Below are positions 5,562-42,786 of a stretch of DNA of 51,304 nucleotides, piece by piece. Source of the stretch: an uncultured Candidatus Saccharibacteria bacterium (GTDB lineage Bacteria > Patescibacteriota > UBA1384 > DTJR01). The stretch spans positions 1-51,304 of the forward strand of contig CAZAOT010000002.1 in NCBI GenBank assembly GCA_964487045.1, given 5' to 3'. Every line of letters begins with the position of its first letter. The first letter of the stretch is position 1. Below the pieces are notes generated by a model. The model was not told the origin of the DNA. It was given only the letters and a program-made list of their open reading frames with translations, and made no database searches. Made by a program: the position numbers and the translations under genes.

Positions 5562-5957
5562 TCATCTGGAATGTTTGGCTGCGATTGATATAGCTTCTGT
5601 GATCATCTCTTGGGGGATGGCCTCATAGCTTTTGCCATCCCTGATAATAGTTCTGCAGTTACTTCCTGTCCCTGCGAGACAAGAACATGAGTGACAATAG
5701 TTTTCCGATGCTGTCGCCTCTAAAATATCCTCGATTTTTTGCCCGTTAATTAGCACTGTGTTTGAATCGGGCATTTTGTCGGCTTCGAGCTTCGTCTCTT
5801 TGTAGATAATCTCAATGTTCTTGAAATCTTTGTCTTTCAATATTGTTTCAATGGCTGCTTTGACATTATCGCCGGTATTGTTGCATCTGGTGCAGGTCTC
5901 ACCTTCTTTGTCGTAGTGCATCCACTCAATATGTAACTTTTTCAATTTCTCCTCCAA
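5562..5957 (-). CDS. DUF2703-like small Cys-rich protein
   Basis: CTRC near the N-terminus and CHSCSC...C later. Recalled to co-occur with ArsR/permease/thioredoxin-like genes; this comes from memory only. Confidence 0.45.
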   Translation of the reverse strand: MEEKLKKLHIEWMHYDKEGETCTRCNNTGDNVKAAIETILKDKDFKNIEIIYKETKLEADKMPDSNTVLINGQKIEDILEATASENYCHSCSCLAGTGSNCRTIIRDGKSYEAIPQEMITEAISIAAKHSR

Positions 5958-5958
5958 T

Positions 5959-11878: not shown

Positions 11879-12073
11879 ATGGACGATCTAAGTGCAAATG
11901 CTCACATTAAGGCCAAAGAACCAAGCGAACTGCTCTCTATTGAAGAATGCAAGAAACAGCTTAAAAAGTATAACTTATCGGACGAGCAGATACTCCAGCT
12001 CAAGAACGGTTTAATTGGAATTGTAGACAGTATTATTAACTCGTATATAAATGAATTCGATCAAACCCGATAA
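11879..12073 (+). CDS. Small (64 aa) helical protein co-transcribed with the recombinase; function unknown
   Basis: Strong SD and ATG at 11879; overlaps the recombinase start. The track's 11828 start falls on the -35 box, so it was rejected. Confidence 0.35.
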   Translation: MDDLSANAHIKAKEPSELLSIEECKKQLKKYNLSDEQILQLKNGLIGIVDSIINSYINEFDQTR

Positions 12074-15325: not shown

Positions 15326-16884
15326 CTTAAGGCTCCTAAAAGATTAATCCCGCTCATTTCAGCAGATTTTTCGATGCCCAATGACTGGGAAATCGTTGGG
15401 GCTATATCGGCAAGTATTCCGACTGGTTCGCTATTAAATAATTCATCCTTTGATATGTAGCGGCCTTTATATTTAAGGTCGCAATAGATAAACGGAACAG
15501 GATTGAGAGTGTGCTCTTTGTTTGGTTTGCCTGTAGCAAAATCAATCATTTCATCGCAATTACCATGGTCTGCGGTAATAATTACTCGATAATCTTTCCT
15601 AAGAAGCTCTCCGACTAATTTCCCCAATACCTGGTCAAGTATTGATACTGCGTTTTTGGTAGCTTCAAAATTTCCGGTATGACCAACCATATCTCCATTT
15701 GCAAAATTAGCTGCAATAAAATTAATCCCTGAATTTGCAGCTGCAACTATCTCGTTTGAAATTTCCACCGCTCTCATTTGTGGATACTGGTCAAAGCTTT
15801 TTACTTTCTTCGTCTGAATAATTTTATCGATTTCGCCATTAAATACTTTCTTATCGCCCCCTGCAAAGAAATATGTGATATGCGCAAACTTCTCTGTTTC
15901 TGCCACATGAAATTGCTTCAGATTATTCTGAGAAATTATTTGACTAAGTGGATTGCGCAGTGGATTTGTTTCGGGGTTGTTTAAATCGAGATTGGAAAAA
16001 AGCACATTAAGCCCCAGGTTGTCATCATAGGTAGTCATCGAATAGAAATTTCTAGTAATAGATCTTCGTTTGATGTCTGGTAAATTTGGATCCACAAAGG
16101 CGCGAGTCATTTGTACTGCTCTGTCAGATCTATAGTTTGTAAAAATAAAAACATCCTTAGTAAAATCAAAAACGTCTTCCGAGAAGCTTACCGGTTCAAT
16201 GAACTCATCGGTTTTTCCTGCGGCGTATGAATCTTCGATTACCTGATTCGGGTTGTTGGCTTTCTTACCAATTCCAGTTATTGCGTCATATGCAAGCTGT
16301 ATCCTGTCCCAATTTTTATCTCTGTCCATCGCGTAATATCTTCCCATCATTGATCCAAAACTAGTTAGTTTGCCAATTTGCTTAGAGATGTGGTCTAAAA
16401 ATAACTTAGATGATTTTTCCGCCGTATCTCTTCCATCAGTTATTGCGTGAAGGATAATTTTTGTTTTGGGCTTATCGCTTTTAATTAACTTAACTAAACT
16501 AATCAAATGATTAATATGTCCATGGACAGCTCCATCGGACATTACAAACAAGACATGAATGTTAGATCCTGACTCAGCGGAGTCAATGATTTTTTTATAC
16601 TCAGGTTTTTTTCTAAATTCACCATTTGTAAGTTTTAGAGTTATTTGTGGCAGATCTTGCAAAACAATTCTACCTAGGCCGATCGCAGTATGACCAACCT
16701 CACTAGAGCCAAATTCTCCCCAGGGAAGACCAACTTCTTCAGCCGAAGCTTTTAGGAGACACTTTGGGAATACTGGCAGGATAGCATCGAGATTCGGAGT
16801 AGGAGTATTTAAAATAGCATTTCCAGTGAGTTCTGGAGTTATTCCAAAACCATCCAATATCAGAAGCGCTACTTTTTTTGACAC
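15322..16884 (-). CDS. gpmI: 2,3-bisphosphoglycerate-independent phosphoglycerate mutase, paralog 1 (GTG start)
   Basis: LDGFG, SSEVGH, ANGDMVGHTG and TADHGN motifs; SD GGAGCGAGG upstream of the GTG. Confidence 0.85.
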   Translation of the reverse strand: MSKKVALLILDGFGITPELTGNAILNTPTPNLDAILPVFPKCLLKASAEEVGLPWGEFGSSEVGHTAIGLGRIVLQDLPQITLKLTNGEFRKKPEYKKIIDSAESGSNIHVLFVMSDGAVHGHINHLISLVKLIKSDKPKTKIILHAITDGRDTAEKSSKLFLDHISKQIGKLTSFGSMMGRYYAMDRDKNWDRIQLAYDAITGIGKKANNPNQVIEDSYAAGKTDEFIEPVSFSEDVFDFTKDVFIFTNYRSDRAVQMTRAFVDPNLPDIKRRSITRNFYSMTTYDDNLGLNVLFSNLDLNNPETNPLRNPLSQIISQNNLKQFHVAETEKFAHITYFFAGGDKKVFNGEIDKIIQTKKVKSFDQYPQMRAVEISNEIVAAANSGINFIAANFANGDMVGHTGNFEATKNAVSILDQVLGKLVGELLRKDYRVIITADHGNCDEMIDFATGKPNKEHTLNPVPFIYCDLKYKGRYISKDELFNSEPVGILADIAPTISQSLGIEKSAEMSGINLLGALR

Positions 16885-17032
16885 TTGTGCCCCTCGCTCC
16901 GTGAATTGCGCTCCAAGGCAGGAAGCAATTCCGGAAGTCCCGTCACTTTGATCCCTACTTGCCTGCCGGTAGGCAGGTTCGCAAATTTCTTAGATTAAGA
17001 ATATTGCGAGAGGGTGAAAAGTGACTGGGATA
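16885..17032 (-). repeat. Structured intergenic repeat, copy A (5' of gpmI)
   Basis: Shares ordered sequence blocks and stem positions with 18167-18290 (see findings). Confidence 0.6.
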
Positions 17033-18166: not shown

Positions 18167-18290
18167 ATTTCGCTCCGTGTCCAGCTCGTTACGAAGGGCT
18201 GGACCGGAAGTCCCTCACTTTGAAAACCTATTCGTAAATTTCTCAAATTGAGAATATTGCGAGAGGTTGAAAAGTGACGGGATCAACCCT
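18167..18290 (-). repeat. Structured intergenic repeat, copy B (5' of pgi)
   Basis: Same block order as copy A; the hairpin adjacent to the SD has a different sequence but the same position and length. Confidence 0.6.
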
Positions 18291-26821: not shown

Positions 26822-26851
26822 TTGACAGCCGTACGCATCAGGACGTATGAT
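26822..26851 (+). promoter_or_regulatory. Near-consensus promoter directly in front of the STAND gene (near-leaderless)
   Basis: TTGACA (26822-26827), 18 nt, TATGAT (26846-26851), with ATG only 9 nt downstream (26861). Confidence 0.55.
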
Positions 26852-26860
26852 AATTTCATT

Positions 26861-29800
26861 ATGAAATATCGTTCTGGAATTGTAATCAAGCAAGCTAGAG
26901 AAAAAATGGGCTGGCAACAGTCAGAATTAGCTCAACGCCTTGGGGGCAAAATACGTCAACAGGCAATAAGCGGATGGGAAAGAGGCATATCGAGACCAAG
27001 GAGAAATATGTTGCCTCTTCTGTCAGAGGAGCTAGCGATTGATTTGGGTGCCCTGAGTGAGGCGTGTGATTACAACAAGGGAGAGGAGATTCCACTACCA
27101 GTAAGACCTTTGCTAACCATTCTACCTTTGCAAGATCTTAATTTTGATCAATTTGAGCAGTTCTGTAATGATTTGATTTCGGGACTATATCCTAACCAGC
27201 AAGTCCACAGGTGGGGTGGACAGGGGCACAAACAAGACGGAATTGATCTATTGCGTAGAGATCAATCAGAAAATGTCGCGGCCTATCAGTGCAAAAAATG
27301 CAAAGAATTTGGGTCTACAGATGTTAGCAACGCAGTCAATGAAGTCAAAATAAAAGCAAAAGAATATGTCATTCTCTTAAGTCGGTTCCCAGCGAGTCCC
27401 GGCTCAAGAAAAGAAATCAGTAAAAATCAAAATTGGGATATTTGGGACGCTGGAGATATTTCGAAAAAGGTAAAGGATCTCTATACCAGCAATCCAGATA
27501 ATGCAATCGCACTTGTTGATAATCACTTCCCCGGCTGGCGAGAAAATTTTCTGGGTGTTTCGACGCCAAGCCCCTGGATATCACATCAGAGATTCTTTGA
27601 GAAATTTGATTCAAATGAAATTTTCAGCCAAAGATGGCATCTTGTAGGCCGGGAGAATATTTTGAAAAGTGCAAAGAAATTTCTCTCTTCGGATGATCGT
27701 TTTATTGCTATTTTGTTGGGTCTAGGAGGAAGCGGCAAAACAAGGCTTTTAAAAGAAATTTCAGAAATCGCAGAGCGAGATCTAAAATATATTGTTCGGT
27801 TGATAGAAACCGACCAGTCTCCGACACTGCAAGACTTCGAGAAATTGCCAAAGGGCGATAAGCTACTTGTATTGATTGATGACGCGCAGCAGAGATCGAA
27901 TATCGCCGGACTAATCAATAATATTTCAAGTATTAGGAAACGAGTTAAATTTATTTTAGCCTTGCATCCTTATGGGAACTCTCAACTTTCAGAAGATCTG
28001 CGGAGAATAGGAATATTCTCCACCGAACTTGAGCAATGGGACATTGGCTCGACCGATTTGAAATTATCCGAAGCAAAAGATCTAGCCCGAGAAATATTGA
28101 GTAGCCAAGCAAATGAAGCTGAAATAGATAGAATAGCTCGTCTAACCCTTGATTGCCCATTGATTACCGTCATGGCATCTGTCCTGTTAAAAAGGGGAGA
28201 AATTAATTCATTTGTTTTTGAAGGTCAGGGTGCGATTCGATCAGTATTGATAGGTTATCAGAACACAATGATTAATTCGCTGAAAGGTAACTTAGATCCT
28301 TCGGTAATTAGGAAATTATTAAATGCCATTGCTGCGGTACAGCCCCTGAATATAGAGGATCAGAGTTTCAGAGATTCTCTTTCAGAAATAACCGGTTTAA
28401 AATTTTATGATATTGCTCCTTATATAAAGCAATTTAAAGAACACGGCATCTTAATAAGCCGACAGCAATCTCTTCGAATCGTTCCGGATCTGCTTGGGGA
28501 TGTCATTTTAGCTGATGCGTGTTTTATGAGTCCAACGAGTTATACAACTACCGGGTATGCCGAGGATTTATACAGCAAGCTCAAAGCGCTTCCACTTCAA
28601 AACTTAATAAAAAATCTAGTCCGCGTTGACTGGCAAATCAACCCAGATAATTCCGAAAGGGCTTTGTCTGAATTTGTTTGGAGTAAAATCGAAAAAGAAT
28701 TTAAACACTCGAGTATCAGTGAGCGTATTCAAATTATCCAATTTGTTAAGAAGATATCATACTTTCATCCCAAAAGAGCGTTAGGGTTAGCTCGTTGGGC
28801 TATCAATAATCCTACTCAAAAGACAAGAGAGGCCGCAGGAGTACTTTCTAAAATATATAATCCTACCTATCAAGACGTTCTGAATGAGATCCCTCCTATA
28901 TTAAAAGGTGTTGCGTATAATCTCGAATTTCTGACGGAGGCGATGAATTTGCTGTGGGAGCTTGCAAAAGTCGACAGCAGAGAGACTAACCCCTTTCCTT
29001 ATCACCCGATACGTATTTTGCAGGATCTCGCATCTTATCAAATCGGTAAACCAGTTACATTTAATAACTTAGTGATCGATGCTTGTGCAAAATGGTTGGA
29101 AGAACCAGAGTTATCAAACCACTCTCCATTCGATATACTTGATCAAATATTAGTCACCGAGAGCTCCGATGATTCTTCTGAGGGGTTCACTATTTCATTC
29201 CGTCCTTATCCCGTTAATATATCGGCCGTGAATGGACTTAGAGAACGCGTTAACGACTTAGCATTTAAGGAACTACTCTCTGATGATTTAGCAAGAGCCT
29301 CGCGAGCGGCGGAAACAATCGGTCACAGCTTAAGGTATCCGCAAGGCCTTTTTGGGCGAGTTGTAAAACGCGAGGAAAGGGAAAATTGGACTCCAGTATT
29401 TGTGACAACTATTAATCGGCTTGAAACGATCATGAAGAACGATCAACTTGATCCGCTGGTTAGAGTTTTGATCTTGGATAACTTAAGCTGGCACATTAAT
29501 TATTCAACGACTTCAACCAGAAAAGCTGCTCATAAAGTAAAAATTGCCTTACCAGATTCCTTGGAGCAGCATGTTGCGCTCGCTATGTATGATGGCTGGG
29601 GTCATTTTTTTAAGAGAATCAATGATTTTGAAAAAGCGGAACAAAGGAAACAGGATTGGCTGGAAAATATTGCCACAGAGCTGATAAAGCAAAAATCAGA
29701 TCAAGGAATAATTAAAATAATAGAGGAAAGACTGAGTAAACAATTTAAAATCAAAGGCCGTTCCGCAAATCCGCTCCCATTCATCTGGACATTAGTGAAA

Positions 29801-30979
29801 GCGAGACCTTCAATTGGAATGGCAATTTGTGAGAGAATTAAAACAGAACATAATTCTGCACTTGTAGAGGTTCTCAGTATTGTTCTCGCTGAACTCATAA
29901 AACACGATGCTAGCAGTACTATCATATTATCAAACACCTTCCTAAAGCTTAAAAATATCAAACTTGCTCGGATGGTTGCACAGGCATTCGGTTGGAATAG
30001 AGGTAATCGCACCAGCTTAGTAAAAAATGAGCTCAAGCTTTTATCAGACTTGTCGATAAGTAATGACCAGTCCGTCAGGATTAACATGATTCGTGCAGCA
30101 CAGATTATTGCTAAAGATGATCGGGTTACAGCTATCAACCTTTTATCGCTCTTGAAATTCCAAGATTCTGCCGCAATTGCAGAGGAGTACTTCTCTGTTT
30201 TTTATAGCCCTGGATTTCCTTCCTGGATATCGCTTCCAAGTAAACAATTAGACCTTATTTGGGATCAGCTAGTTTTGTGTCCATCGTTAGATGATTATCA
30301 CATTTCAAAGTTTTTGTCCGAGGCTTCTGAGGTATGCCCCGGGAAGGTCCTTAAATTGTTAAAAGTGAGAGTAGAAAAAGATGAAAAACAACACAATCGA
30401 GATGAATACAAAGCTCTGCCATACGACTGGCAACACCAACTAAAATTTAGAAACGATCCGAACTTTTTAAGTATATTAAGTGAAATCAGAAATTGGATCG
30501 CACAAAAAACCGACTCGTGGCAGAGAGCGATGATGGGGGCAAAGATTTTTACGGGCGTAGCTATAGAGTTCGACCATAATACGATTAAGATTTTAGAAGA
30601 AGGTATATTTTCGGGCACAAAGGAACAGCTCGATGCGGTAATTTCAATATTAAGAGAGGCTCCCAGAGAGTTTGTTTGGGATCATGTAGATTTTGTTAGA
30701 ACACTCTTGGATCAATCTGCTAAATATGGAGACAGCACGCTAAAAAGGGCTTCAGGGGCATTATATAATTCTGTTATTTCAGGGGTTAGAACCGGGATAC
30801 CTGGACAGCCTTTTGCCGAGGATATAGCACAACGGGATCGATCAATAAAAACACTCGAGTCGCTAAAACCTGGCTCAAGAGAAGCGATTTTTTTCAAATC
30901 ACTGGCAGAGTCAGCTATCCAGAACATCAAATCTCGAGCCGAAGAAGATGAAAAACTACGAGATTGGAGAGATTGGTAA
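26861..30979 (+). CDS. XRE-HTH + Mrr-like PD-(D/E)xK nuclease + STAND/P-loop NTPase + long helical-repeat C-terminus (Avs/NLR-like candidate defence protein)
   Basis: HTH QSELAQRLG...QAISGWERG; nuclease FEQFCNDL...DGIDLL...AAYQCKK; Walker A GLGGSGKTRLL; Walker B LLVLIDDAQ; about 1000 aa of helical repeats. Start moved to ATG 26861 because the track start is the -35 box. Confidence 0.6.
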   Translation: MKYRSGIVIKQAREKMGWQQSELAQRLGGKIRQQAISGWERGISRPRRNMLPLLSEELAIDLGALSEACDYNKGEEIPLPVRPLLTILPLQDLNFDQFEQFCNDLISGLYPNQQVHRWGGQGHKQDGIDLLRRDQSENVAAYQCKKCKEFGSTDVSNAVNEVKIKAKEYVILLSRFPASPGSRKEISKNQNWDIWDAGDISKKVKDLYTSNPDNAIALVDNHFPGWRENFLGVSTPSPWISHQRFFEKFDSNEIFSQRWHLVGRENILKSAKKFLSSDDRFIAILLGLGGSGKTRLLKEISEIAERDLKYIVRLIETDQSPTLQDFEKLPKGDKLLVLIDDAQQRSNIAGLINNISSIRKRVKFILALHPYGNSQLSEDLRRIGIFSTELEQWDIGSTDLKLSEAKDLAREILSSQANEAEIDRIARLTLDCPLITVMASVLLKRGEINSFVFEGQGAIRSVLIGYQNTMINSLKGNLDPSVIRKLLNAIAAVQPLNIEDQSFRDSLSEITGLKFYDIAPYIKQFKEHGILISRQQSLRIVPDLLGDVILADACFMSPTSYTTTGYAEDLYSKLKALPLQNLIKNLVRVDWQINPDNSERALSEFVWSKIEKEFKHSSISERIQIIQFVKKISYFHPKRALGLARWAINNPTQKTREAAGVLSKIYNPTYQDVLNEIPPILKGVAYNLEFLTEAMNLLWELAKVDSRETNPFPYHPIRILQDLASYQIGKPVTFNNLVIDACAKWLEEPELSNHSPFDILDQILVTESSDDSSEGFTISFRPYPVNISAVNGLRERVNDLAFKELLSDDLARASRAAETIGHSLRYPQGLFGRVVKREERENWTPVFVTTINRLETIMKNDQLDPLVRVLILDNLSWHINYSTTSTRKAAHKVKIALPDSLEQHVALAMYDGWGHFFKRINDFEKAEQRKQDWLENIATELIKQKSDQGIIKIIEERLSKQFKIKGRSANPLPFIWTLVKARPSIGMAICERIKTEHNSALVEVLSIVLAELIKHDASSTIILSNTFLKLKNIKLARMVAQAFGWNRGNRTSLVKNELKLLSDLSISNDQSVRINMIRAAQIIAKDDRVTAINLLSLLKFQDSAAIAEEYFSVFYSPGFPSWISLPSKQLDLIWDQLVLCPSLDDYHISKFLSEASEVCPGKVLKLLKVRVEKDEKQHNRDEYKALPYDWQHQLKFRNDPNFLSILSEIRNWIAQKTDSWQRAMMGAKIFTGVAIEFDHNTIKILEEGIFSGTKEQLDAVISILREAPREFVWDHVDFVRTLLDQSAKYGDSTLKRASGALYNSVISGVRTGIPGQPFAEDIAQRDRSIKTLESLKPGSREAIFFKSLAESAIQNIKSRAEEDEKLRDWRDW

Positions 30980-31628: not shown

Positions 31629-32765
31629 TTATACTTTGCTATTTAATGACTTTACTGTTTTCTCGATCAATGCAATAAATCTGCTTATCGTATCGTCTGT
31701 GAGTAGTTCTAAATCCTTAATTGCTTTTCTTTTCTCATCGTAGCTGGGTAGTGTACGATAGCAATCAACATATTCGCTGATGAATGGCTTCAATTTCGGA
31801 ATATTTTCAAACGGCCACTCGCAATATCCAAACTGGAGCTCTTCTACATCCTGCTCGTTCGAGGGAGCTTTGAAAAATAAGAATGAGAATTTTGTTGTGT
31901 AGCCGGGTACGGCTAAGTCTTTAGGATATTTGGTCATTAGTGAAAAGCCGTTTTTACGCCAGACAACTTCTACACTTTCTTCTGACTCAAATTTTTTCAG
32001 AAGTGCTTCGGCAATTCTCTTGCCATTTTGTGATAATAATTTTATAAAGTCCTCTTTGGCAATCGGTGTTCGATCATAGCTGTCGTTAGACTTGGATTTC
32101 TCAGAGTAGGTAATATTTTTTCGTGGAGGGTTGGCTAGACTGGGTATCAGAAAATGCTCTTGAGCATCACCCACTAACTGCATTTCAACTACGTAAAAGT
32201 CGATTTCCTGACCCGTTCGATCATTCAGATAGTTCGCGATATCTTTAAGCTCTTGATTGGCCTGATCGACAACAATCAGAAGAGTAAAACTGCCGAGACG
32301 AAGCCGCTTTTCCAGGCCTTCTTTGAATTCAGATTCTGAGAAATTCTCTTCTCCTATCTTTTCTTTCATATATTCAGACAACGAACCTTGAAAATTGACC
32401 TTACGCTGGAGTAGGAATTTCCGAAAACAACTACTTTCAATCTCTTCATAAGATTTATTCCAAAGATAGGCGGCATAACCGAGAATTTGGCCGACAACAG
32501 TCCTCTTTACTTCAGGATTCTTCTCAAGCTTTGTTTCGATCAAAGCAATGTGGCCTTGAGGACTGACCGCCAAAACATCCAGCGCACCATTTTGAAGGCT
32601 TACTTCCTTTCCTATTGTGACGAATTTGGAATCATACCCTATTTCATCAAGCGGAAGAGTGTTAACATCGTTTGTTAATAGATCTTGAAGTTGAGCTTCA
32701 TCGTTATAGTATCGCTTTTCAACCGGAACCCATTTCTTATCCGGATTTAAATGTAATATTTTCAT
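31629..32765 (-). CDS. Hypothetical protein with an N-terminal NucS/DUF91-like PD-(D/E)xK nuclease signature
   Basis: GALDVLAV...GHIALIETKL...VGQILGYAAY; start placed at ATG 32765 (SD GAGG) rather than TTG 32798. Confidence 0.45.
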   Translation of the reverse strand: MKILHLNPDKKWVPVEKRYYNDEAQLQDLLTNDVNTLPLDEIGYDSKFVTIGKEVSLQNGALDVLAVSPQGHIALIETKLEKNPEVKRTVVGQILGYAAYLWNKSYEEIESSCFRKFLLQRKVNFQGSLSEYMKEKIGEENFSESEFKEGLEKRLRLGSFTLLIVVDQANQELKDIANYLNDRTGQEIDFYVVEMQLVGDAQEHFLIPSLANPPRKNITYSEKSKSNDSYDRTPIAKEDFIKLLSQNGKRIAEALLKKFESEESVEVVWRKNGFSLMTKYPKDLAVPGYTTKFSFLFFKAPSNEQDVEELQFGYCEWPFENIPKLKPFISEYVDCYRTLPSYDEKRKAIKDLELLTDDTISRFIALIEKTVKSLNSKV

Positions 32766-33058
32766 TTCTTTGCCTCGATTAACCGGAAGCGGATACAAAA
32801 AGCCCGCCGCCAGCGATAGCTTTTTACGGCTACCTGCAATCCTTTCGGACTACAACCGATCAAGGTGCTCTGACGACGAGCCCATTATCCTTGATCGGTT
32901 TTTATGCCATGCCTTAGAAAAATCTAAAGTTTAGGCAATGTATTCAAAATTTACAATTAACAACCTTAATGTTAGCAGATTTACTCCTGTTGTAAAGACA
33001 TTTCGGGTGATTTTTTGCTTGACTTAGCCCTGTTATTCGGGCTTCCTTTCCCTTACAA

Positions 33059-34432
33059 ATGAGCCAAGAGACCAAATTAACGAATACTGCACCGTTTCAG
33101 CTACCACAAGAAGTAAATGGGGTGTTTGCCGGGCCAATTCAGCCGCCAGATCCGGAAACGAGATACTGCCTTTACGCTCGCAAATCAAGTGAAGATGACG
33201 AGAGGCAAGCACTTTCGATCGGTTCACAAATTAACGAGATGACCAGGCAAGCAGAAACGCAAAGTTTACAGGTCGTTGAAGTTCGGCAAGAAAGTCATTC
33301 GGCAAAATATTCTGGACAAAGACCCATATTTCAACAGCTGATTGGCGATATCCAAAACGGATTATTTAACGGAATTTTAAGTTGGGCGCCCGACCGATTG
33401 TCGAGAAACGCTGGTGACTTGGGATCTATTGTTGATTTGATGGATCGAGGATTATTGAAAGAAATTCGGACTCATGGGCAAGTTTTTACAAATTCACCTA
33501 ATGATAAGTTCCTGCTGATGATTTTATGTTCACAAGCAAAGCTAGAGAATGATAATCGAGGAATCAATATCAAAAGAGGGATGAGGGCAAAATGCGAAAT
33601 GGGCTTCCGACCCAATATGGCTCCAATTGGATACCTGAATGATAAGTACGGCAATAAAGGTCAGCGAAAGGTTTATCCAGATCCTGATAGAGCACCGATC
33701 ATCAAAGAAGCTTTTGAGAAAGTCGGCTATCACGGTTGTTCTGGTCGTCAGGTCTATCTTTGGCTTAAAGACGAGGTTGCGTTTGTAACTCGAAGCGGAA
33801 AGCCGATGACTTTAAGCACAATTTATCGAACTTTGAGTAATCCCTATTATACCGGAGTATTCGAAGTGCCTGAGGGTAGCGGCAATTGGTATAAAGGGGC
33901 ATATGAACCGATCGTTTCGAAAGAGCTATTTAAAATTGTACAAGAAAAATTAACCGTAGTGCCAAAGAGCATGCCCGGAACCAAACAATTTGATTTTACC
34001 AAGTTATTAAAATGCGGAGAGTGCGGTTCTGGAATCACGGCACAGGAAAAAATTAAGCATTGGGGAAAAAGATATGTTTATTACCACTGTACGAAGTTGA
34101 GAAATTTTGAATGTCCTGAGCGATATACAAACGAAGAAAAATTAGTACAAGAATTTATAAGAATTCTATCGAAGCTGACAATCGATCAGATCAAATCCAA
34201 AAGAGAGATTTATGGCAAATTTGAGCAATTTTGTAAATTCAGATCGGACGTATTGGATTTCGAGCTAAAACCGAACCAAGCAAATTATATTGATCAGACA
34301 CGAATTAACATCGAAAAATTTGTTGAACATATTTTCGAAAAAGGTAATCGCGAAGAGAAGCGGTCGCTAATCGGTTGTCTAAGCGCAAAACTAATTCTGA
34401 AAAATCGAGAAGTTTGTTTGTTAGAACTCTAA
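33059..34432 (+). CDS. Large serine recombinase (Rec2), paralogous to Rec3
   Basis: YCLYARKSSEDDERQALSIGSQ, APDRLSRN, Zn ribbon CGECGSGITA...YYHCTK; blockwise similar to 36986-38590. Confidence 0.85.
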   Translation: MSQETKLTNTAPFQLPQEVNGVFAGPIQPPDPETRYCLYARKSSEDDERQALSIGSQINEMTRQAETQSLQVVEVRQESHSAKYSGQRPIFQQLIGDIQNGLFNGILSWAPDRLSRNAGDLGSIVDLMDRGLLKEIRTHGQVFTNSPNDKFLLMILCSQAKLENDNRGINIKRGMRAKCEMGFRPNMAPIGYLNDKYGNKGQRKVYPDPDRAPIIKEAFEKVGYHGCSGRQVYLWLKDEVAFVTRSGKPMTLSTIYRTLSNPYYTGVFEVPEGSGNWYKGAYEPIVSKELFKIVQEKLTVVPKSMPGTKQFDFTKLLKCGECGSGITAQEKIKHWGKRYVYYHCTKLRNFECPERYTNEEKLVQEFIRILSKLTIDQIKSKREIYGKFEQFCKFRSDVLDFELKPNQANYIDQTRINIEKFVEHIFEKGNREEKRSLIGCLSAKLILKNREVCLLEL

Positions 34433-36936: not shown

Positions 36937-36985
36937 CATGAGCTTGTACTTGCCTGCCGGCAGGCAGGGCTCAGCTGGTAGAGCA

Positions 36986-38590
36986 CTACACGCGATCCGT
37001 TAAATATTGGGCTGGTAGTTCAGCTGGTAGAACACTGCATTCGCATTGCAGAGGTAGAGGGTTCGAGTCCCTCCCAGTCCACCATTTTACATTTCGTGCC
37101 AATTCTTCCGCTTCGCTCGAGCCAACGGCTCTTGCTTGCGGTGGCAAATTCGAGAGTAATTCATATTGTTTTTGAAAATTCATAATGAGTTTTCCGCCCA
37201 GCAAAATGCGGTTCGAGCCGGCGGTTTTAAGAAAATTTCTCATAGCGGAGAAATTTTTTGTTTTAACAAAATTTCCAGCTTGGTTGGCGTCAATTATCCA
37301 GTTTTTCAAGAGTTCGAGCCAATGATTTCCTTTTCGTTCAAAATCTCTTAACTTTTCTTCAAACTCGGCTTTTTGCTCAATCAGTTTATTCTTCTTTTCT
37401 TTGTACTCTGAAAGCTCTATCGCTTGGTCTAAGTAAGCGTCAGACAAACGATCAAGCCGAGTTTTGATGGTTGCAATTTTGTTGTTTAGATTTTGAGCGA
37501 AAACAACCGACGAGTGGTATTTATCTTTTTCCCAACCTTGAACTTTTAGCATATACTTTTCTTTCCACTCGTCGGGCAAAGAAACTTTTTGACAGAGATC
37601 TTCAATTTGTTTTGCCAAAACTTCTTCGCAAACAAATTTTCTCTCGGCACAAACTTTGGTTTTGCTTTTATGAGTACAACGGTAGTAAACATATTCTCGG
37701 CCACTTGGCTTGAACTTTCTCTCGGCAGTTATGGCATAACCGCAACTTCCGCATTTGGCAAAACCAAGAAATTGAAGTTCTCTTTCCTTTCGTTTGTGCC
37801 GAGGTTTCGAGTGATCTTTTAGGGCAACTTGTATTTTGTCAAAAGTTTCTTTGGAAATCATTGGCTTATGAGAACCTTGATAAAGTTCTCCGTCATAACT
37901 TATGACGCCGTAATAAAATGGCTTCGATAGTAGTTTTTGAATTGATGACAAAGCCATTTTATGTCCGTCTTTTCCAACCAAGCCAAGAGAAAACATTTTT
38001 GCTTGAATTCCAGTCAGCGAAAACTCGCCGGTAGCAAAAAGCTCCAGCGCTTTCTTAACTAGCGAAAAAGTTTTGGGATTTGGGTCGATAGTTCGAAGTC
38101 TTGGCTCGTTGAAGTAACCGAGTGGAGCTTTTGAAGGCAATTCTCCTCGGCGAAGTTTTTGCCGTATTCCTCGCAAAATGTTTTCTCTTAAATTGTCGGT
38201 GTAATATTTGGCCTGACCAAAGGCAACGCTTAACATGAACTTTCCTTGTGGTGTTGCTTCAAACCAGAAAGTTGGGAATTTTAGCGAGGTGATTTTGCCT
38301 GTATCAACCAAGTAAATTACTCTTCCACCATCAACAGAGTTTCTGGCAAGTCGATCGGGATTCCAAGCTAAAATTCCCGAAGCGTTGCCTTTTTCAAGCT
38401 CTAAAAGCATTTGGTTAAAGATTGGTCGCCCAGGCTCCTTGGCGGTTTTGCTTTCGGTAAACTCACGAACAACAAACAAGTTATTAGTCCTGGCAAAATC
38501 TCTTAGTTCTTGGAGTTGGGCTTCAATAGACAAAATTTGTCGCTCTTCCTCTTCGGAAGATTTACGACAGTAAATGAAATACTTTTCCAT
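36986..38590 (-). CDS. Large serine recombinase (Rec3)
   Basis: YFIYCRKSSEEEERQILSIEAQ, NPDRLARN, Zn ribbon CGSCGYAITA...YYRCTH, coiled coil. The last 32 codons (after WW) are the antisense of the entire tRNA-Ala(CGC) plus 23 nt beyond it. Confidence 0.85.
   Translation of the reverse strand: MEKYFIYCRKSSEEEERQILSIEAQLQELRDFARTNNLFVVREFTESKTAKEPGRPIFNQMLLELEKGNASGILAWNPDRLARNSVDGGRVIYLVDTGKITSLKFPTFWFEATPQGKFMLSVAFGQAKYYTDNLRENILRGIRQKLRRGELPSKAPLGYFNEPRLRTIDPNPKTFSLVKKALELFATGEFSLTGIQAKMFSLGLVGKDGHKMALSSIQKLLSKPFYYGVISYDGELYQGSHKPMISKETFDKIQVALKDHSKPRHKRKERELQFLGFAKCGSCGYAITAERKFKPSGREYVYYRCTHKSKTKVCAERKFVCEEVLAKQIEDLCQKVSLPDEWKEKYMLKVQGWEKDKYHSSVVFAQNLNNKIATIKTRLDRLSDAYLDQAIELSEYKEKKNKLIEQKAEFEEKLRDFERKGNHWLELLKNWIIDANQAGNFVKTKNFSAMRNFLKTAGSNRILLGGKLIMNFQKQYELLSNLPPQARAVGSSEAEELARNVKWWTGRDSNPLPLQCECSVLPAELPAQYLTDRV
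37009..37084 (+). tRNA. tRNA-Ala (anticodon CGC), CCA encoded
   Basis: Hand fold: GGGCTGG/CCAGTCC acceptor with G3:U70, D-stem GTTC/GAAC, anticodon arm CTGCA-TTCGCAT-TGCAG, T-arm GAGGG-TTCGAGT-CCCTC, ACCA. Confidence 0.9.
37079..37214 (+). repeat. Inverted repeat arm A (covers the Rec3 3' coding end)
   Basis: Reverse complement of 38707-38842. The inner ~104-105 nt have 3 mismatches; the outer about 30 nt next to CCACCA are diverged. Confidence 0.85.
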
Positions 38591-38706
38591 TTTTCCCTCC
38601 TTAAATTTTGTCTATAACCAAATGCTTTTATACACCGACAATTTTCTGGAAATTTTGTTACCGCCGGGGCTCTAAAGAATTTCATTCTTTTCTGTGCTTC
38701 GCACAG

Positions 38707-38842
38707 GAACCGCATTTTGCTGGGCGGAAAACTCATTATGAATTTTCAAAAACAATATGAATTACTCTCGAATTTGCCCCCGCAAGCGAGAGCCATTGGC
38801 TCGAGCGAAGCGGAACAAATTAAATTAAATACAATGTGGTGG
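38707..38842 (-). repeat. Inverted repeat arm B (pseudo-copy of the Rec3 3' end upstream of the Rec3 promoter)
   Basis: The + strand reads RILLGGKLIMNFQKQYELLSNLPPQARAIGSSEAE..WW, matching Rec3 residues near the C-terminus. It ends on tggtgg, which is also the first 6 nt of IR-L. Confidence 0.85.
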
Positions 38843-39020
38843 TATGTTTTGAACGAAGCTCGAACTTTTTTCGAAAATGCTGAAATTTAATACTGATGCT
38901 CGCGACCCGCAAAGCGGGTCGCTCGCTTTATTTCCTTTTTTTCAAAATACATTTTTGCGCGGCCGTGGAGGGGTGTGGGGAGGAAACGGCCGCGCTAGCT
39001 TTTTTGGGGCGGGGCGGAAA
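38837..39020 (+). repeat. 184-bp inverted repeat, left arm (IR-L)
   Basis: Reverse complement of 42387-42570 with one mismatch (38844 a vs 42563 c). Contains hairpins at 38902-38922 and 38957-38995, each followed by a T-run. Confidence 0.95.
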
Positions 39021-39100
39021 AAATTAGACACAGATCAAATGCTTATGCTAATTATAGTATGTAGCATTAAAATTAGCAATTAGCTTATACTTGTATTAAA

Positions 39101-39313
39101 ATGAAGAAAGGTATCTTAATAAAATTTGGTGACCGAGTCCGCGAAGAACGCTTGAAACTTGGATTGTCGCAAGAAGAACTTGCTGTTAAAACTGGAGTTC
39201 ACCGAACCTATATTGGCATGATCGAACGAGCCGAGAAAAATATTACCTTGTTAAATATTGAAAAGATAGCAGGGGCTTTAAAAATCACTGTGAACCAACT
39301 ATTTAGAAAATAA
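39101..39313 (+). CDS. XRE-family HTH transcriptional regulator (70 aa)
   Basis: LGLSQEELAVKTGVHRTYIGMIERAEKNITLLNIEKIA. Confidence 0.8.
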   Translation: MKKGILIKFGDRVREERLKLGLSQEELAVKTGVHRTYIGMIERAEKNITLLNIEKIAGALKITVNQLFRK

Positions 39314-39317
39314 TTAT

Positions 39318-42300
39318 ATGGATGAATTTGGAAAATATACTCCAGAGGAAGCTTTCGACGAATCACAGCGTCTTGGAAATTCCACTGGATCTAATAAAAA
39401 TGAATTAGATGAAGCAGAATTTCAATTACTAAATGAATCTCAGCGAGAACTCGCTGATAGAATTATTGAAGACCCAGCTATTTCAATCCCAGAAGTTTAT
39501 TTTGAAAGACAACAAAATCCCGAAGCAGTCAGAAGTGTGCTATCTTTGAATATTGTACAGTCAGCATTACGAAGAGCATTGATTGATTCAATTTTTGACG
39601 GGGATGTCGGGTTAACTGAAAGTCTAATAAAAGAATACGAGTTACCAGAAAGTGTAATTTCTTCTTCTGAGTTGCAAACAAAGATAAAAGACGAAGCAAT
39701 ATTTCTTTTAGGTCATTATGATTTTGGAAAATTCCAGAAATTATTTGATCTATTTGGTTTGCCAGACGCAATTGGTGAATATAATTTAGATTTCAATATA
39801 TTTTTTAGAATAGATCGTCGATTTACTTTCTCTAGTATTTTAGAATTTGGTAGGTTTATCCAACAGCATGAAACATATTTTGGTTGGCTGGAGAATGAGA
39901 AACTTAATGGACGAGAGTCTGAATGGTTATTTGATGAACATGAGTTAGATAGCATCAAACAAAAATACCTTAGACCAGAAGAGGCCCATGTTTTGGTGTT
40001 GCATGGATTTACAGTTTCATCCAATTGGACAGAAACAGGTGGAAAAGATAGCTATGAAGAAGCGTTAAAAGTACTGTCAGCGACGGAATCACTTAAACGC
40101 TGGCAAGAATCGGATGAATTAGTGCAGTTTCTAGAAGTTTTTGATGAGGATGATCAAATAGAACCGACCCATGGGGAAAATGGTGTCCAAGAAAGGCAAA
40201 CCGAAGAAGCGACAACAATATTTGAAAGAGCGTCAAAAAGATTTGGTTACCGGTCAATGTTTCAATTCTGTTTTAGGGATGATGTAGGGATGCATGACAT
40301 GCTTCATGCGTACGATGATATCGAAGACAGTCTGTTCAAGTCCTCTGGACTCAAACCAAGTGAGTTTTTTGGCCAGATACTTTTTCAAGTTAAAATGGAT
40401 TCAGTCAACTACCAAGATGGTGCGAGTTACCACCGGCTTAATACGATCGCACAATCATTCAATCCACAAGAAGCCCAGAAAGTAATAAAAGAATTATCAC
40501 AAATTCCCGAATTTGCCGAAATGTCCGCTTCATACAAGACGGTGGAAGACATTTTTTCATCATGGGCCAGTTTAAAAAAATTCCATAAGCTCCAGACAAT
40601 CCTTGGACAGCAAGATCTACTCAACCAGTTAAAAACTCAGGGACATACGAAACTAATTGATTATATACGCCGGTTGGCTTTTGGCGGATCAAGTGTAAGC
40701 ATCGAGAAAGTACTACAATTTTGGAAAGATCCTAGTGGCTTTTTAAATATCAGCGAACGACATGCAAGAAGAGTTCATGAGTTGAAAAAGCCATCACATT
40801 ATACAGAAATACCTCACCTTGACCTAACTCCCGAAGAACTTCGCGACTCACTGGTTGAAGGAGACCTAGATTCCCTTCAAGTTTTCCACCCATTAGAAAT
40901 AGAATATACCATATCATCTAGTGCTGGAAATTTAAGAGAAAATTTGACAGAAGCATTGGGCAGTCGGGAAGCGGGAATAAAGCCAAGAGCTAAAAATCCA
41001 AAAAAATTGTATTCTGCAGTTAAAAATATTTTAGACCCAGCTGGTATCAGTCTTAAGGATTATCTTCAAGGTCAAGCTGACTTACCATCTGGTATGGAAG
41101 ATCAATTGGGTATTATCTTGAAAGACGATTCTGCAGGGCTTGTGGACCACGTTGAGGTGTATCGAGCAAAGATATATTCCAAAAGCGATCCCGAAAGTGT
41201 TGTTGCTGGAAATGATACTTCATGTTGTATGCCTTTTGGATCAGGAAAAAATAATATTTACACATTCAACCCTATCTGCTCAACGTTTGTGGTCCAGAGA
41301 CAAAACAACAATGGAAGTTGGCGGACGATAGCGCAAAGTATTTTGACAGAAGATGTTGATATTCATGAGAATATACATGAGTTAATGCAACGAATTGACT
41401 TTGCTGATAAAAGTCAATTAAGAGAATTTATTCCTCAGAGCGTATTGGAGCAATCGCCATCTGTGGTTACCGCCGACAATATTGAAGTATCACCTAATTT
41501 TGCTGCTTCCGAACAATCCAGTTTAATATTGGAACAAATATATCGTGATTTCTTTCAAGAATATAGCCGCCGATATTTACAAGGCGAGTCAAATGATGGC
41601 TCTAGAATAATCGTTGGAAAAGGGTATTCAGAAATCATGGGTCATCTACCAGAAGTAAACAATACATTTTTACCACGGACACCAGTTGCATACTCCGACA
41701 ATATAATGCAAACCGCCTATCAGTTAGACTTGTGGGGGGAGCCGAATCCTGTTATGGACTGGAAGGGGCGCATCACAGAGACATACACACCGATAGATCA
41801 GTCATCAGACTCTAGAGTTCTTTCAGATGTTGGTATCCGCGGCTTGTCATTTCTTGGTTTTAGAGACGCTCTGCCTGTTTCGTTCATCGAGGGCAAAGCA
41901 TATGAGGACAACCCAGAGCTTCTTGTATATTTACATAATATGGAAAATGCCTTAATAGCAAAAGACATCAACAACTCCAGAAAGAAACGTTCGAATATGA
42001 GCTTGAAATGGCAAGATTCTACCGGGAAAATTCATGGTTACATTCTTGCGTACGAAGGAGTTAGCGTAAGGGCTGCCGATACAGTTTCTCATCAAGCCCA
42101 AGAACGAATATTATATATTTCCGACCTAGCTTCTGATTCCGAATCGAAATTAGCCGGCGGGTACCTCATCAAAGGTTTTTTCGAACTATATAGAAGGAAT
42201 TATCTCGAGAAGGGTGATTTTATTCCAATTGTTTTTGAGGGTAGAGAGCAAACATCATATTCAATAGTAGCAAAACAAATTAGTAGGATCGCATCAAATC

Positions 42301-42386
42301 TAGGATATGAATGTTCTCTCGAGGAAGGTGAGGCCTATAAACATGGAAATGACATAATGCACCCCGTGGTCCTTCGATTTAAATAA
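39318..42386 (+). CDS. 1022-aa orphan protein, possible GNAT-like C-terminal domain
   Basis: Long uninterrupted ORF 4 nt after the XRE stop. The C-terminal about 170 aa (GYILAYEG...ILYISDLASD...LAGGYLIKGFFELY...IVFEGRE) resembles an acetyltransferase fold. No other motif was recognised. Confidence 0.7.
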   Translation: MDEFGKYTPEEAFDESQRLGNSTGSNKNELDEAEFQLLNESQRELADRIIEDPAISIPEVYFERQQNPEAVRSVLSLNIVQSALRRALIDSIFDGDVGLTESLIKEYELPESVISSSELQTKIKDEAIFLLGHYDFGKFQKLFDLFGLPDAIGEYNLDFNIFFRIDRRFTFSSILEFGRFIQQHETYFGWLENEKLNGRESEWLFDEHELDSIKQKYLRPEEAHVLVLHGFTVSSNWTETGGKDSYEEALKVLSATESLKRWQESDELVQFLEVFDEDDQIEPTHGENGVQERQTEEATTIFERASKRFGYRSMFQFCFRDDVGMHDMLHAYDDIEDSLFKSSGLKPSEFFGQILFQVKMDSVNYQDGASYHRLNTIAQSFNPQEAQKVIKELSQIPEFAEMSASYKTVEDIFSSWASLKKFHKLQTILGQQDLLNQLKTQGHTKLIDYIRRLAFGGSSVSIEKVLQFWKDPSGFLNISERHARRVHELKKPSHYTEIPHLDLTPEELRDSLVEGDLDSLQVFHPLEIEYTISSSAGNLRENLTEALGSREAGIKPRAKNPKKLYSAVKNILDPAGISLKDYLQGQADLPSGMEDQLGIILKDDSAGLVDHVEVYRAKIYSKSDPESVVAGNDTSCCMPFGSGKNNIYTFNPICSTFVVQRQNNNGSWRTIAQSILTEDVDIHENIHELMQRIDFADKSQLREFIPQSVLEQSPSVVTADNIEVSPNFAASEQSSLILEQIYRDFFQEYSRRYLQGESNDGSRIIVGKGYSEIMGHLPEVNNTFLPRTPVAYSDNIMQTAYQLDLWGEPNPVMDWKGRITETYTPIDQSSDSRVLSDVGIRGLSFLGFRDALPVSFIEGKAYEDNPELLVYLHNMENALIAKDINNSRKKRSNMSLKWQDSTGKIHGYILAYEGVSVRAADTVSHQAQERILYISDLASDSESKLAGGYLIKGFFELYRRNYLEKGDFIPIVFEGREQTSYSIVAKQISRIASNLGYECSLEEGEAYKHGNDIMHPVVLRFK

Positions 42387-42570
42387 TTTCCGCCCCGCCC
42401 CAAAAAAGCTAGCGCGGCCGTTTCCTCCCCACACCCCTCCACGGCCGCGCAAAAATGTATTTTGAAAAAAAGGAAATAAAGCGAGCGACCCGCTTTGCGG
42501 GTCGCGAGCATCAGTATTAAATTTCAGCATTTTCGAAAAAAGTTCGAGCTTCGTTCAAAACACACCACCA
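42387..42570 (-). repeat. 184-bp inverted repeat, right arm (IR-R)
   Basis: Starts on the nucleotide after the TAA stop of the 1022-aa ORF and ends in ccacca. Confidence 0.95.
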
Positions 42571-42589: not shown

Positions 42590-42637
42590 GGGCTGAACAT
42601 TGCGGAGATGGCAGTTCGATTCTGCCTAGGTCCACCA
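42590..42637 (+). pseudogene. tRNA-Ala 3'-half remnant (anticodon-loop end, T-arm, acceptor with U70, CCA)
   Basis: GGGCTGAA-CATTGCGG-AGAT-GGCAG-TTCGATT-CTGCC-TAGGTCC-ACCA. It lacks the D-arm and the 5' anticodon stem, and parallels positions 37044-37084 of the intact tRNA. Confidence 0.65.
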
Positions 42638-42786
42638 ATTTGTATTTTGTTTAATTTGTTCCGCTTCGCACGGGATCAAACCCAACGATTCGGCTGGTAA
42701 TTCTGTATAAAGGCGAATAAATTGTATATGATTTCTTGAAAAAGAATCTATAAAATCATAATTAGCGATTCGCTAGAAAGGATATA

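Follow-up and report, generated by a model that had tools for sequence, protein, structure and literature searches.

The window analysed in this study is a stretch of 51,304 nucleotides (nt) from an uncultured Candidatus Saccharibacteria bacterium (GenBank assembly GCA_964487045.1, contig CAZAOT010000002.1, positions 1 to 51,304 of the forward strand). Its region from about 37085 to 42570 contains a gene for a large serine recombinase (LSR), referred to as Rec3, and a two-gene cassette enclosed by long inverted repeats, and lies directly beside a tRNA gene. The arrangement of these features suggests a small integrative element with tRNA-like attachment sites, which is the subject of this report. 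The analysis was computational and comprised repeat detection, open reading frame (ORF) prediction, ARAGORN, Rfam, Pfam, PADLOC and Foldseek searches, AlphaFold2 (AF2) modelling and metagenome sequence searches.

An intact tRNA-Ala(CGC) gene, the putative integration target, was identified at 37009–37084 on the forward strand (ARAGORN; Rfam tRNA, 67.9 bits), with its 3' CCACCA at 37079–84, the putative left boundary of the element. Rec3 is encoded on the reverse strand (36986–38590), and its last ~33 codons run antisense across this tRNA gene. The 534-aa protein contains the Pfam domains Resolvase (PF00239; 1.8e-19), Recombinase (PF07508; 2e-09) and Zn_ribbon_recom (PF13408; 3.6e-06). No existing record matched the exact Rec3 sequence. 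Rec3 shares 90% identity with the LSR of the related metagenomic locus L092, 49% with those of loci L097 and L098, and ~24–25% with the best phage LSRs. None of its ten closest LSR relatives in IMG/VR (33–43% identity) shows the inverted-repeat architecture described below. In two of these ten, the LSR is followed by an opposite-strand tRNA gene, which in L104 lies ~260 nt past the LSR match.

The 3' end of the Rec3 gene is present in two copies, detected by the repeat tool and by alignment, which form an inverted repeat (IR2) of 136 nt with 90% identity. The tRNA-proximal copy, R (37079–37214), codes for the end of Rec3. The second copy, R' (38707–38842), is non-coding, inverted and located upstream of Rec3. 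Differences between R and R' are concentrated in the ~30 nt that adjoin CCACCA.

The cassette is bounded by two arms, IR-L (38837–39025, forward strand) and IR-R (42382–42570, reverse strand), reported by the repeat tool as an inverted repeat (IR1) of 189 nt with 98% complementarity. An earlier note on this DNA had described the pair as 184 nt long (38837–39020 and 42387–42570) with one mismatch (38844/42563). Base-by-base comparison agrees with this, and identity falls off past 39020/42387. The boundaries given in that note were also confirmed: the perfect part of IR-R begins on the base after the TAA (42384–42386) of the 1022-aa ORF, and IR-L begins on tggtgg (38837–42), the final 6 nt of the inverted Rec3 3'-end copy at 38707–38842.

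From the outside inwards, IR-L consists of an outer module (38837–38877) that imitates a tRNA 3' end, carries a GTTCGAGC motif and is a candidate P-type half-site, followed by hairpin 2 (38902–38922; 9-bp stem, 3-nt loop), the core hairpin (38957–38995; loop TGGAGGGGTGTGGGGAGGAAA) and a G-tract (39006–39016). The same modules are present in IR-R, whose outer CCACCA (42565–70) would form the right boundary of the element (attR = arm/flank). Thus, both arms contain the two GC-rich hairpins described previously. The inward T-runs were likewise recovered: hairpin 2 received a terminator-like call on the inward-reading strand in both arms, and the core hairpin is followed by TAGCTTTTTT, its 21-nt loop lying outside the allowed range of the terminator scanner. 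Hairpins and T-runs of this kind, read inwards, probably stop outside transcription from entering the cargo. The 39-nt core hairpin occurs only twice in the window (≤3 mismatches), and none of 100 shuffled sequences contained any match. The outward-reading strand of the arm, on which the main loop is C-rich (CCUCCCCACACCCCUCC), folds far better than shuffled sequences (z = -4.56; 0/200 shuffles as stable), whereas folding of the inward strand is not better (z = -1.69). No Rfam family was found for the arms, either in a gathering search of the whole window or in a permissive search of 38600–39150. A Logan contig (SRR11845625) with an identical 1022-aa gene terminates 30 nt into IR-R, which fits a genuine repeat in an independent short-k-mer assembly, if assemblers behave as we suppose. 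That the near-identity of the two arms is kept by gene conversion is a guess.

A relic lies outside the proposed element, starting ~20 nt to the right of IR-R (42590–42672, forward strand). It consists of an internally deleted tRNA-Ala pseudogene (~42590–42637), which ARAGORN did not call as a tRNA, and 35 nt of R-like sequence. The relic region is linked to the recombinase module by a direct repeat (D1; 37061–37119 / 42614–42672, 71%) and an inverted repeat with 38802–38842 (I3; 88%). It may be the trace of an earlier occupant of the same site. A tRNA 5'-half-like fragment (GCTCAGCTGGTAGAGCAC...; 36965–36997, forward strand) directly upstream of tRNA-Ala(CGC) is probably another rearrangement relic.

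Between the arms, a unique AT-rich region (39026–39100) with TAGCA-type repeats precedes two genes. Promoter-like sites are present in both directions: two on the forward strand (39073–39102 and 39096–39125) and one on the reverse strand (39079–39051; 10/12 matches), the latter pointing at IR-L and Rec3. This region is a possible operator for the product of the first gene (39101–39313, forward strand), a 70-aa helix-turn-helix (HTH) protein of the HTH_3 family (Pfam 6.9e-16). The best PADLOC family of this protein is Control_protein (1.1e-20), and its sequence resembles controller (C) proteins of restriction-modification (R-M) systems. The HTH gene ends 4 nt ahead of the second gene, which encodes the 1022-aa protein (39318–42386, forward strand), just as a controller gene directly precedes the effector gene in C-protein operons. 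The 1022-aa gene occupies the position of the nuclease in such an operon. The protein itself matches no nuclease or methylase family, and the cassette, which has no further gene, contains neither a restriction endonuclease nor a cognate methyltransferase.

The 1022-aa protein consists of a variable N-terminus (residues ~1–290) and a conserved module of ~720 aa that ends in a GNAT fold. The earlier note had called it an orphan of no nameable family. The second description holds in that no Pfam or PADLOC family was assigned. The first does not: an exhaustive search retrieved 468 representative clusters of relatives, 294 of them at E<1e-30, superseding a word-index protein search that had found only three. 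All 468 carry the ~720-aa C-terminal module behind varying N-termini. A PDB profile search with the protein returned nothing meaningful (E 0.38). An AF2 model of residues 290–1022 built from a 51-sequence input (pLDDT 86.7, pTM 0.82) replaced an unusable one from four sequences (pLDDT 50). The best Foldseek matches of this model in the PDB were only GNAT acetyltransferases, e.g., Naa10 and EctA (E 5e-4 to 1e-2), over the last ~190 residues. Outside this part the model is helical and without a match, and no nuclease or DDE-like match was found by Foldseek in the PDB. The protein is therefore a member of a large uncharacterised family with a predicted GNAT-fold end. It may be a toxic or defence effector.

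Relatives of the 1022-aa protein were also located in GTDB genomes, at 75 loci. By record title, most of these belong to Patescibacteria/Candidate Phyla Radiation (CPR) groups or are labelled only "bacterium"; further titles name Peregrinibacteria/Peribacteria, Gracilibacteria, SR1, Obscuribacterales and Bdellovibrionota. About a dozen loci are binned as Gammaproteobacteria, for which mis-binning is suspected. The homologues in L002 and L003 have ordinary chromosomal or housekeeping neighbours. In loci L004–L078, the relatives very often lie at the extreme ends of short contigs of metagenome-assembled genomes, e.g., within the first 50 nt, a placement that hints at repeats or strain variation around the family. 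The two ends of one 58.6-kb contig, JAAZJX010000069.1 (L018/L019), match exactly as reverse complements for at least 8,629 nt; either end carries a relative of the 1022-aa gene, and the palindrome is probably an assembly artefact.

The arm is not unique to this locus, a point the earlier note had left to be checked. The exact 25-mer GCGGCCGTGGAGGGGTGTGGGGAGG from the main hairpin was found in 21 JGI metagenome contigs from several projects, which are among the loci L080–L100 compared here. Eight of the 21 contain two copies, 1.85–4.6 kb apart and always in + then - order, as in the window and independently of contig orientation. Within a locus, the two arms are 93.5–100% identical over 91–216 nt. 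Between loci, often only the hairpin is common, and some loci also share the outer 41 nt. The stretch between the outer 41 nt and the hairpin exists in several unrelated versions, and these two modules are conserved separately. The arms of L089 and L096 match the window arm over its full length at 87–92%. The hairpin had no match in IMG/VR viral contigs and was absent from the 777 kb of loci L001–L079 save one chance-like match with 4 mismatches; the whole arm matched no PLSDB plasmid. The hosts of the sister elements are, on sequence similarity, relatives of the window organism: a gene in L080 encodes a protein 83% identical to a window gene product, and L081 shares 80–90% nucleotide identity with the tRNA-Leu region of the window. 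They are probably CPR bacteria, an assignment based on indirect evidence rather than a taxonomic marker.

The window and L092, beside tRNA-Ala, and L097 and L098, beside tRNA-Asn, follow one layout: tRNA / R – LSR – R' / arm – cargo – arm / flank. The two LSR lineages with this layout are 47–49% identical. In L092, the LSR lies next to tRNA-Ala(CGC) and is bracketed by R/R' copies of 136 nt (98.5%). L097 has R/R' copies of 82 nt (98.8%) around its LSR, the locus being partial with respect to the arms. In L098, a tRNA-Asn gene (6310–6384, reverse strand) overlaps the end of the LSR gene (4876–6345, forward strand), R and R' lie at 6238–6315 and 4744–4821 (78 nt, 97.4%), and the arms at 4616–4750 and 735–869 (135 nt, 98.5%). 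IR1 and IR2 overlap by 6 nt in the window and by 7 nt in L098. Homology between the window and L092 is 88.9% over 1.8 kb, with its edges at the tRNA end and 41 nt into the arm (38877). It ends at 37091, ~7 nt from the tRNA end, and the two tRNA-Ala genes differ in the T-arm and acceptor. These junctions are sharp and hybrid: L092 homology stops near the tRNA end, and the boundaries of IR1 and IR2 coincide on CCACCA.

The genes between the arms differ from locus to locus, and many are of restriction or defence type. The cargo of L098 comprises a small HTH gene, a 354-aa ORF, a LexA-fused N6/N4 methylase and a DUF5677 protein. L084 carries a C5 methylase with Vsr and a LexA-like repressor, L087 an Mrr-type nuclease (Mrr_cat), and L089 a C-like HTH gene followed by an MvaI/BcnI restriction endonuclease. 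A DUF3800 protein was found in L081, a DUF4238 protein in L083 and an N6/N4 methylase in L096, together with several further cargo proteins without a family; PADLOC returned nothing for eight other cargo proteins. Small HTH genes adjoin an arm in L084, L089, L097 and L098. Rec3-type modules or remnants of R (89–98% nucleotide identity) are joined to differing cargo in the window, L083, L081 and L100, and the visible cargo of L092 has no similarity to that of the window. In L100, a Mutator-family transposase fragment (1179–1757, forward strand) stands at the place of the LSR between the R remnant and the cargo, which suggests that an insertion sequence has broken up the recombinase module.

The outer ends of the arms are antisense to the last 6–12 nt of a tRNA, and four types were distinguished. 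Ends of the type tggtgg, corresponding to tRNA-Ala/Val (...CCACCA), occur in the window, L081, L083, L089, L091–L093 and L096. Ends of the type tggctc(tc)cctg, corresponding to tRNA-Asn (...GAGCCA), occur in L080, L084, L097 and L098, and ends of the type tggtcg, corresponding to tRNA-Pro (...CGACCA), in L082, L085 and L086. L088 has a fourth type, tggcgggg. In all four types, a T-loop-like motif, GTTCGA(A/G)C (antisense), ends 29 nt from the arm end, with the exception of the left arm of L084 (27 nt, owing to a 2-nt deletion). In real tRNAs, such as tRNA-Val in L096, the same motif (G53–A58) ends 24 nt from the CCA end. Because the 5-nt insertion is constant in four lineages, the arm end does not appear to be a decayed, displaced tRNA fragment.

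This spacing resembles the geometry of serine integrase attachment sites. For the LI integrase, Rutherford et al. (2013; PMC3783163) showed that the zinc-ribbon-domain motif of attB lies 5 bp nearer the centre than that of attP. By analogy, the +5 shift of the motif in the arms matches the difference between attP and attB half-sites, and the motif may be the binding site of the zinc-ribbon domain. If strand exchange took place in the first CC/CA of CCACCA, the motif would lie at ~16–24 in the arm and ~11–19 in the tRNA, as in PMC3783163. Pairings other than attP × attB (or attL × attR with a directionality factor) are not recombined by LSRs, as far as the account in PMC3783163 goes.

Taken together, we consider it reasonably probable that the region ~37085–42570 is one small integrative element driven by Rec3, with arms that mimic a tRNA end as its attachment sites. 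The arms would serve in pairs as attachment sites for a small family of LSR elements that target tRNA genes and carry interchangeable, mostly defence-type cargo, a variant of LSR integrative islands at tRNA genes and not a new category. In this model, the recombinase module lies between R (37079–37214) and R' (38707–38842), and the cargo module between the 189-nt arms. Both repeat pairs meet on CCACCA/TGGTGG, 6 nt that represent the tRNA end and the predicted strand-exchange region. The outer ~41 nt of an arm imitate the T-loop-to-CCA end of the target tRNA with the motif 5 bp further out. The arm end would thus act as a P-type half-site, the tRNA end as a B-type half-site, and R as the P' side. 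The tRNA/R junction would be attL and the IR-R/flank junction attR, and the IR-L/R' junction would constitute a second complete attP-like site, inverted, inside the element. The element would be mobile as an excised circle, with a predicted junction ...CAAAACACACCACCA|TTTTACATTTCGTGCC (IR-R joined to 37085 onward) and a predicted empty site tRNA-Ala|AGTTATTGCCC. The cargo is a self-contained unit that brings a promoter region of its own together with a controller-type HTH protein and a large protein with a GNAT domain.

The earlier note had offered, as one of its suggestions, a cassette bounded by terminal inverted repeats (TIRs) and mobilised by Rec3. This comes near the evidence, but the arms look like attP-type half-sites and are not accompanied by target duplications. 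The mobile unit most likely includes Rec3 itself (~37085–42570), the cassette being exchangeable cargo; an LSR-less version of the cassette exists in L084. Another suggestion, an insulated toxin or defence module, is compatible with an LSR element in view of the inward terminator-like hairpins, the C-like HTH protein and the R-M cassettes of sister loci.

The sister loci also contain junctions of other kinds. In L081, the sequence of the IR-R end and of 37085 onward is contiguous (160/168 identical, exact across the junction), as in the predicted circle, and this junction may equally be the internal site of L081 itself. In L081, the distal arm meets the 3' end of another LSR gene, whose product shares 27% identity with the first LSR of the window, as expected from a second integration at the same tRNA. 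A reading of L081 as a flipped LSR segment was dropped, as the arm/R junction can be an internal site and tandem integration accounts for the other arm. In L084, arms and cargo lie next to a tRNA-Asn gene, with neither LSR nor R. After the tRNA end come a 36-nt palindromic hairpin and, next to it, the inverted arm; the hairpin recurs after the other arm, forming a 47-nt direct repeat. In a circle of the L084 cassette, the two arms would together form a single long palindromic site. In L090/L099, a 110-nt remnant of an LSR 3' end and tRNA-Gln directly adjoin the arm that has the regulator-side promoter, an orientation that requires inversion and deletion from the standard layout. A ~27-nt segment, ATCATCGGCTCGAA.TTCATTTTG, occurs in two places, just after the regulator-side promoter and close to the 3' end of the LSR (L098 ~4560–4590 and ~6213–6240, inverted; L084 ~4075–4100; L090 ~11390–11420), and coincides with the rearrangement junction in L090/L099.

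Several observations weigh against the interpretation as an LSR element. No empty site was found, and we infer excision, the exact crossover position and mobility as a circle, as well as the terminator function of the hairpins and the effector role of the 1022-aa protein. The junctions of L084 do not fit a simple tRNA/R scheme. R' differs from R mainly beside the predicted crossover, and the internal site may be inactive or degenerate in the window copy. The main hairpin has no canonical short loop, and its terminator role is a prediction. The toxic or defensive role of the 1022-aa protein is hypothetical, and self-BLAST of the 75 GTDB loci revealed no repeats bracketing its relatives. The conservation of the hairpin is partly biased by ascertainment, as the search pattern was an exact 25-mer from that hairpin. 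An identical hairpin in otherwise unalignable arms, beside LSRs that are only 47–49% identical, is nevertheless informative. The 27 nt and the tRNA pseudogene to the right of IR-R point to a layered history in which a crossover elsewhere, for example in the anticodon loop, is conceivable. The 41-nt tRNA fragment at this position had suggested an anticodon-loop crossover. We consider it less likely: the fragment resembles a complete tRNA that has lost internal sequence and bears an R-like tail of its own, and L092 homology breaks at the tRNA 3' end. No candidate for a recombination directionality factor (RDF) was identified.

A broader role of the elements as a natural cassette-exchange platform is a tentative proposal, which we hold with much less confidence than the element itself. 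The LSRs would anchor on the universal T-loop and be re-targeted among Ala/Val, Asn, Pro and other tRNAs by changes only in the contacts near the acceptor end, the doubled and inverted attP, with half-site-bearing repeats around both the LSR and the cargo module, would permit integration in either orientation and the swap or capture of cargo between elements, and the conserved G-rich/C-rich hairpin would be a shared accessory site or a regulatory RNA.

The arms could also be passive repeats, i.e., terminator modules like repetitive extragenic palindromes or miniature inverted-repeat transposable elements that flank the cassette by chance, are homogenised by gene conversion and have no role in mobility. 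The hairpin module is indeed dispersed and resembles an intrinsic terminator, and single copies occur on many contigs, though most of these are short and may be truncated. The earlier note had named dispersal with unrelated neighbours as one mark of a passive pair; parts of the arm are dispersed, but always in the same organised form linked to LSRs and tRNAs. All eight pairs show the same topology, in each of the four types the outer ends correspond to the cognate tRNA end and keep the +5 spacing, the arms abut LSR modules through a 6–7-nt overlap in two lineages, and the homology breakpoints of sister elements fall at module edges. We regard passive repeats as unlikely.

The folding results could be taken to mean that the arms act at the RNA level. 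Outward transcripts, namely the 3' untranslated region of the 1022-aa mRNA and a leftward transcript toward Rec3, would share a structured RNA whose C-rich loop (CCUCCCCACACCCCUCC) could pair with Shine-Dalgarno-like or G-rich sequences and regulate translation or stability. The stability of the outward strand relative to the inward strand, the retention of the loop sequence in otherwise unalignable arms and the leftward promoter-like site facing IR-L and Rec3 agree with this. However, the arms have no Rfam family, the conservation of the loop is biased by the search pattern, the invariant stems provide no covariation signal, and the tRNA-mimic ends would be left unexplained. We regard an RNA-level role as quite unlikely.

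An invertible switch, the first suggestion of the earlier note, would have Rec3 or host recombination flip the HTH–1022-aa cassette and change its expression, as in the Gin/Hin/Cin systems. Long, near-identical inverted repeats directly beside a serine recombinase are what such a switch would look like, and the near-identity of the arms in every locus suggests frequent exchange. Moreover, the regulator-side arm faces the LSR in the window, L097 and L098 and the non-LSR flank in L089 and L090/L099; both cargo orientations may therefore exist in the family. The suggestion is poorly supported all the same. The promoter-like region and the regulator lie inside and the arms are the same, so inversion would recreate the junctions with no obvious change in expression. 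Rec3 is a 534-aa LSR and not an invertase of ~190 aa, and the LSR rules published in PMC3783163, within the compass of that account, exclude other site pairings. The same arms also bracket unrelated cargo at element boundaries, and LSR-less cassettes exist. Such a switch seems improbable.

The weakest alternative is an autonomous TIR transposon with the 1022-aa protein as a novel transposase acting on the 184-bp repeats. IR-R starts right after the stop codon, and in L001, a 4.4-kb contig, a homologue 41% identical to the 1022-aa protein is likewise bracketed by inverted repeats of at least 82 nt (99%; 1–82 / 3534–3615), the left arm being cut by the contig end and the right arm beginning on the stop codon. 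Past the right arm of L001 (3616–3800), the flank has GC-rich hairpins and a GAAAAAAGTTCG motif alignable with the outer ends of the window arms, and the L001 repeats may be more remote relatives within this arm family. Even so, a transposon of this kind is very improbable and already largely refuted, as arms of this family also enclose R-M and other genes unaccompanied by a 1022-aa relative, the 75 GTDB loci show no bracketing repeats, the flanks (...aatacaatg | arm and arm | agttattgcc) show no target-site duplication, the only recognisable fold is GNAT with no nuclease or DDE-like match, and the neighbours in L002 and L003 are ordinary chromosomal genes.

The proposed element can be compared with several known systems. 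With LSR elements and prophages such as phiC31, Bxb1 and A118/LI (attP × attB -> attL + attR), it shares the Resolvase, Recombinase and zinc-ribbon domains, a recombination site at the end of the recombinase gene and, as for the LI integrase (PMC3783163), a motif that lies 5 bp closer to the centre in the host site than in the element site. Unlike them, it targets the 3' end of a tRNA gene and has an attP arm that mimics a tRNA end. Its two inverted P arms (130–190 nt) and two inverted P' arms would leave an extra attP-like site in the integrated copy, and the element is tiny (~5.5 kb), with no phage or conjugation genes seen in the window element.

Small size, location at tRNA genes, modular and exchangeable cargo, adjoining relics of earlier occupants and arrays at the same tRNA are features shared with tycheposons (Hackl et al., bioRxiv 10.1101/2020.12.28.424599) and Islander-type islands. 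Some tycheposons, a minority, rely on large serine recombinases (Hackl et al., bioRxiv 10.1101/2020.12.28.424599). Islands of these types mostly have tyrosine integrases and direct repeats of tRNA fragments, whereas the repeats described here are inverted, internal and bracket the cargo, and the tRNA-like ends are re-spaced mimics rather than displaced fragments. Compact R-M genes between inverted repeats have been described by Furuta, Abe and Kobayashi (2010; PMC2853133), who also reported R-M genes with an integrase inserted in a tRNA gene. Their units have repeats of 26–65 bp, with 8-bp target duplications in two cases with clean empty sites, and have neither an assigned recombinase nor a shared arm family. 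Here, an arm family is tied to LSRs and tRNA ends without target duplication. In literature searches for related elements, no description was found of a double inverted-repeat, double attP-like design or of a re-spaced T-loop mimic.

In the serine invertase systems (Hin/hix, Gin/gix and Cin/cix), a recombinase gene likewise lies beside a segment bounded by inverted repeats. Invertases are small (~190 aa) with a C-terminal HTH, act on ~26-bp sites with an enhancer and flip promoters or gene ends. Rec3, with 534 aa and LSR domains, does not match this type, the repeats are 189 nt long, and a flip is predicted to leave expression unchanged. Cargo between the arms is unrelated from locus to locus and includes no conserved transposase, unlike in TIR transposons and insertion sequences. 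Integron cassettes rely on the tyrosine recombinase IntI and direct attC hairpins, whereas the enzyme here is a serine recombinase and the arms are inverted. The yeast 2-micron plasmid carries Flp/FRT sites within 599-bp inverted repeats, and Flp is a tyrosine recombinase that joins identical sites in a replicating plasmid. A circularised element of the present type would likewise be split into two unique segments by two inverted repeats, each holding a recombination site, but neither a replication function nor attP × attP activity is shown here. GNAT toxin-antitoxin systems such as TacAT and AtaRT pair a small, stand-alone GNAT toxin of ~170 aa with a cognate antitoxin. In the present cassette, in contrast, the GNAT part comprises the last ~190 residues of 1022 aa, and the partner is a controller-like HTH_3 protein.

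If the interpretation as an LSR element is correct, the way in which a serine integrase reads its sites would be exposed from sequence, with the T-loop-to-CCA end of a tRNA as the host half-site and an element half-site shifted by +5 bp, a scheme repeated for several tRNA targets. The family would then be a natural experiment in the re-targeting of serine integrases, enzymes widely used in genome engineering. It would also show how very small bacteria with reduced genomes move and exchange defence genes through 5-kb elements with insulated, controller-gated cargo. The 1022-aa family would be placed at the position of a toxic effector, a first functional hypothesis for a widespread uncharacterised family. 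Should the arms prove passive, what remains is an ordinary island beside a tRNA gene.

The genes neighbouring the element are ordinary chromosomal genes, including Sua5/YrdC, tRNA-Leu, a class II aminoacyl-tRNA synthetase, a poly(A) polymerase/CCA-adding-type nucleotidyltransferase and phosphoglycerate mutases. Two further LSRs are encoded in the window. One (551 aa; 12051–13706, forward strand) ends antisense across tRNA-Ala(GGC) (13570–13644, reverse strand), has no arm-type inverted repeats and is accompanied on its left by a TrwB/VirD4-like ATPase (9088–11730); this locus may be a larger, different element. The other (457 aa; 33059–34432, forward strand) shares 36% identity with Rec3, lacks the C-terminal extension and has no adjacent tRNA. 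Directly beside the tRNA-Ala(GGC)/LSR junction lie two tandem paralogues of cofactor-independent phosphoglycerate mutase (13793–15325 and 15322–16884, reverse strand; ~77–81% in the repeated DNA). Direct repeats of 51 nt (88%; 16978–17028 / 18231–18281) flank a 377-aa ORF with a weak match to phosphoglucose isomerase. A 1385-aa protein (26822–30979, forward strand) combines an N-terminal HTH_3 domain with a STAND-type NTPase (nSTAND_NTPase5), a defence-like architecture. A full-length match to the LOOT RNA (RF03000; 32815–32937, reverse strand; 93.7 bits, E 9.5e-17) was found by Rfam just upstream of a 389-aa ORF (31629–32798) that has no Pfam family.

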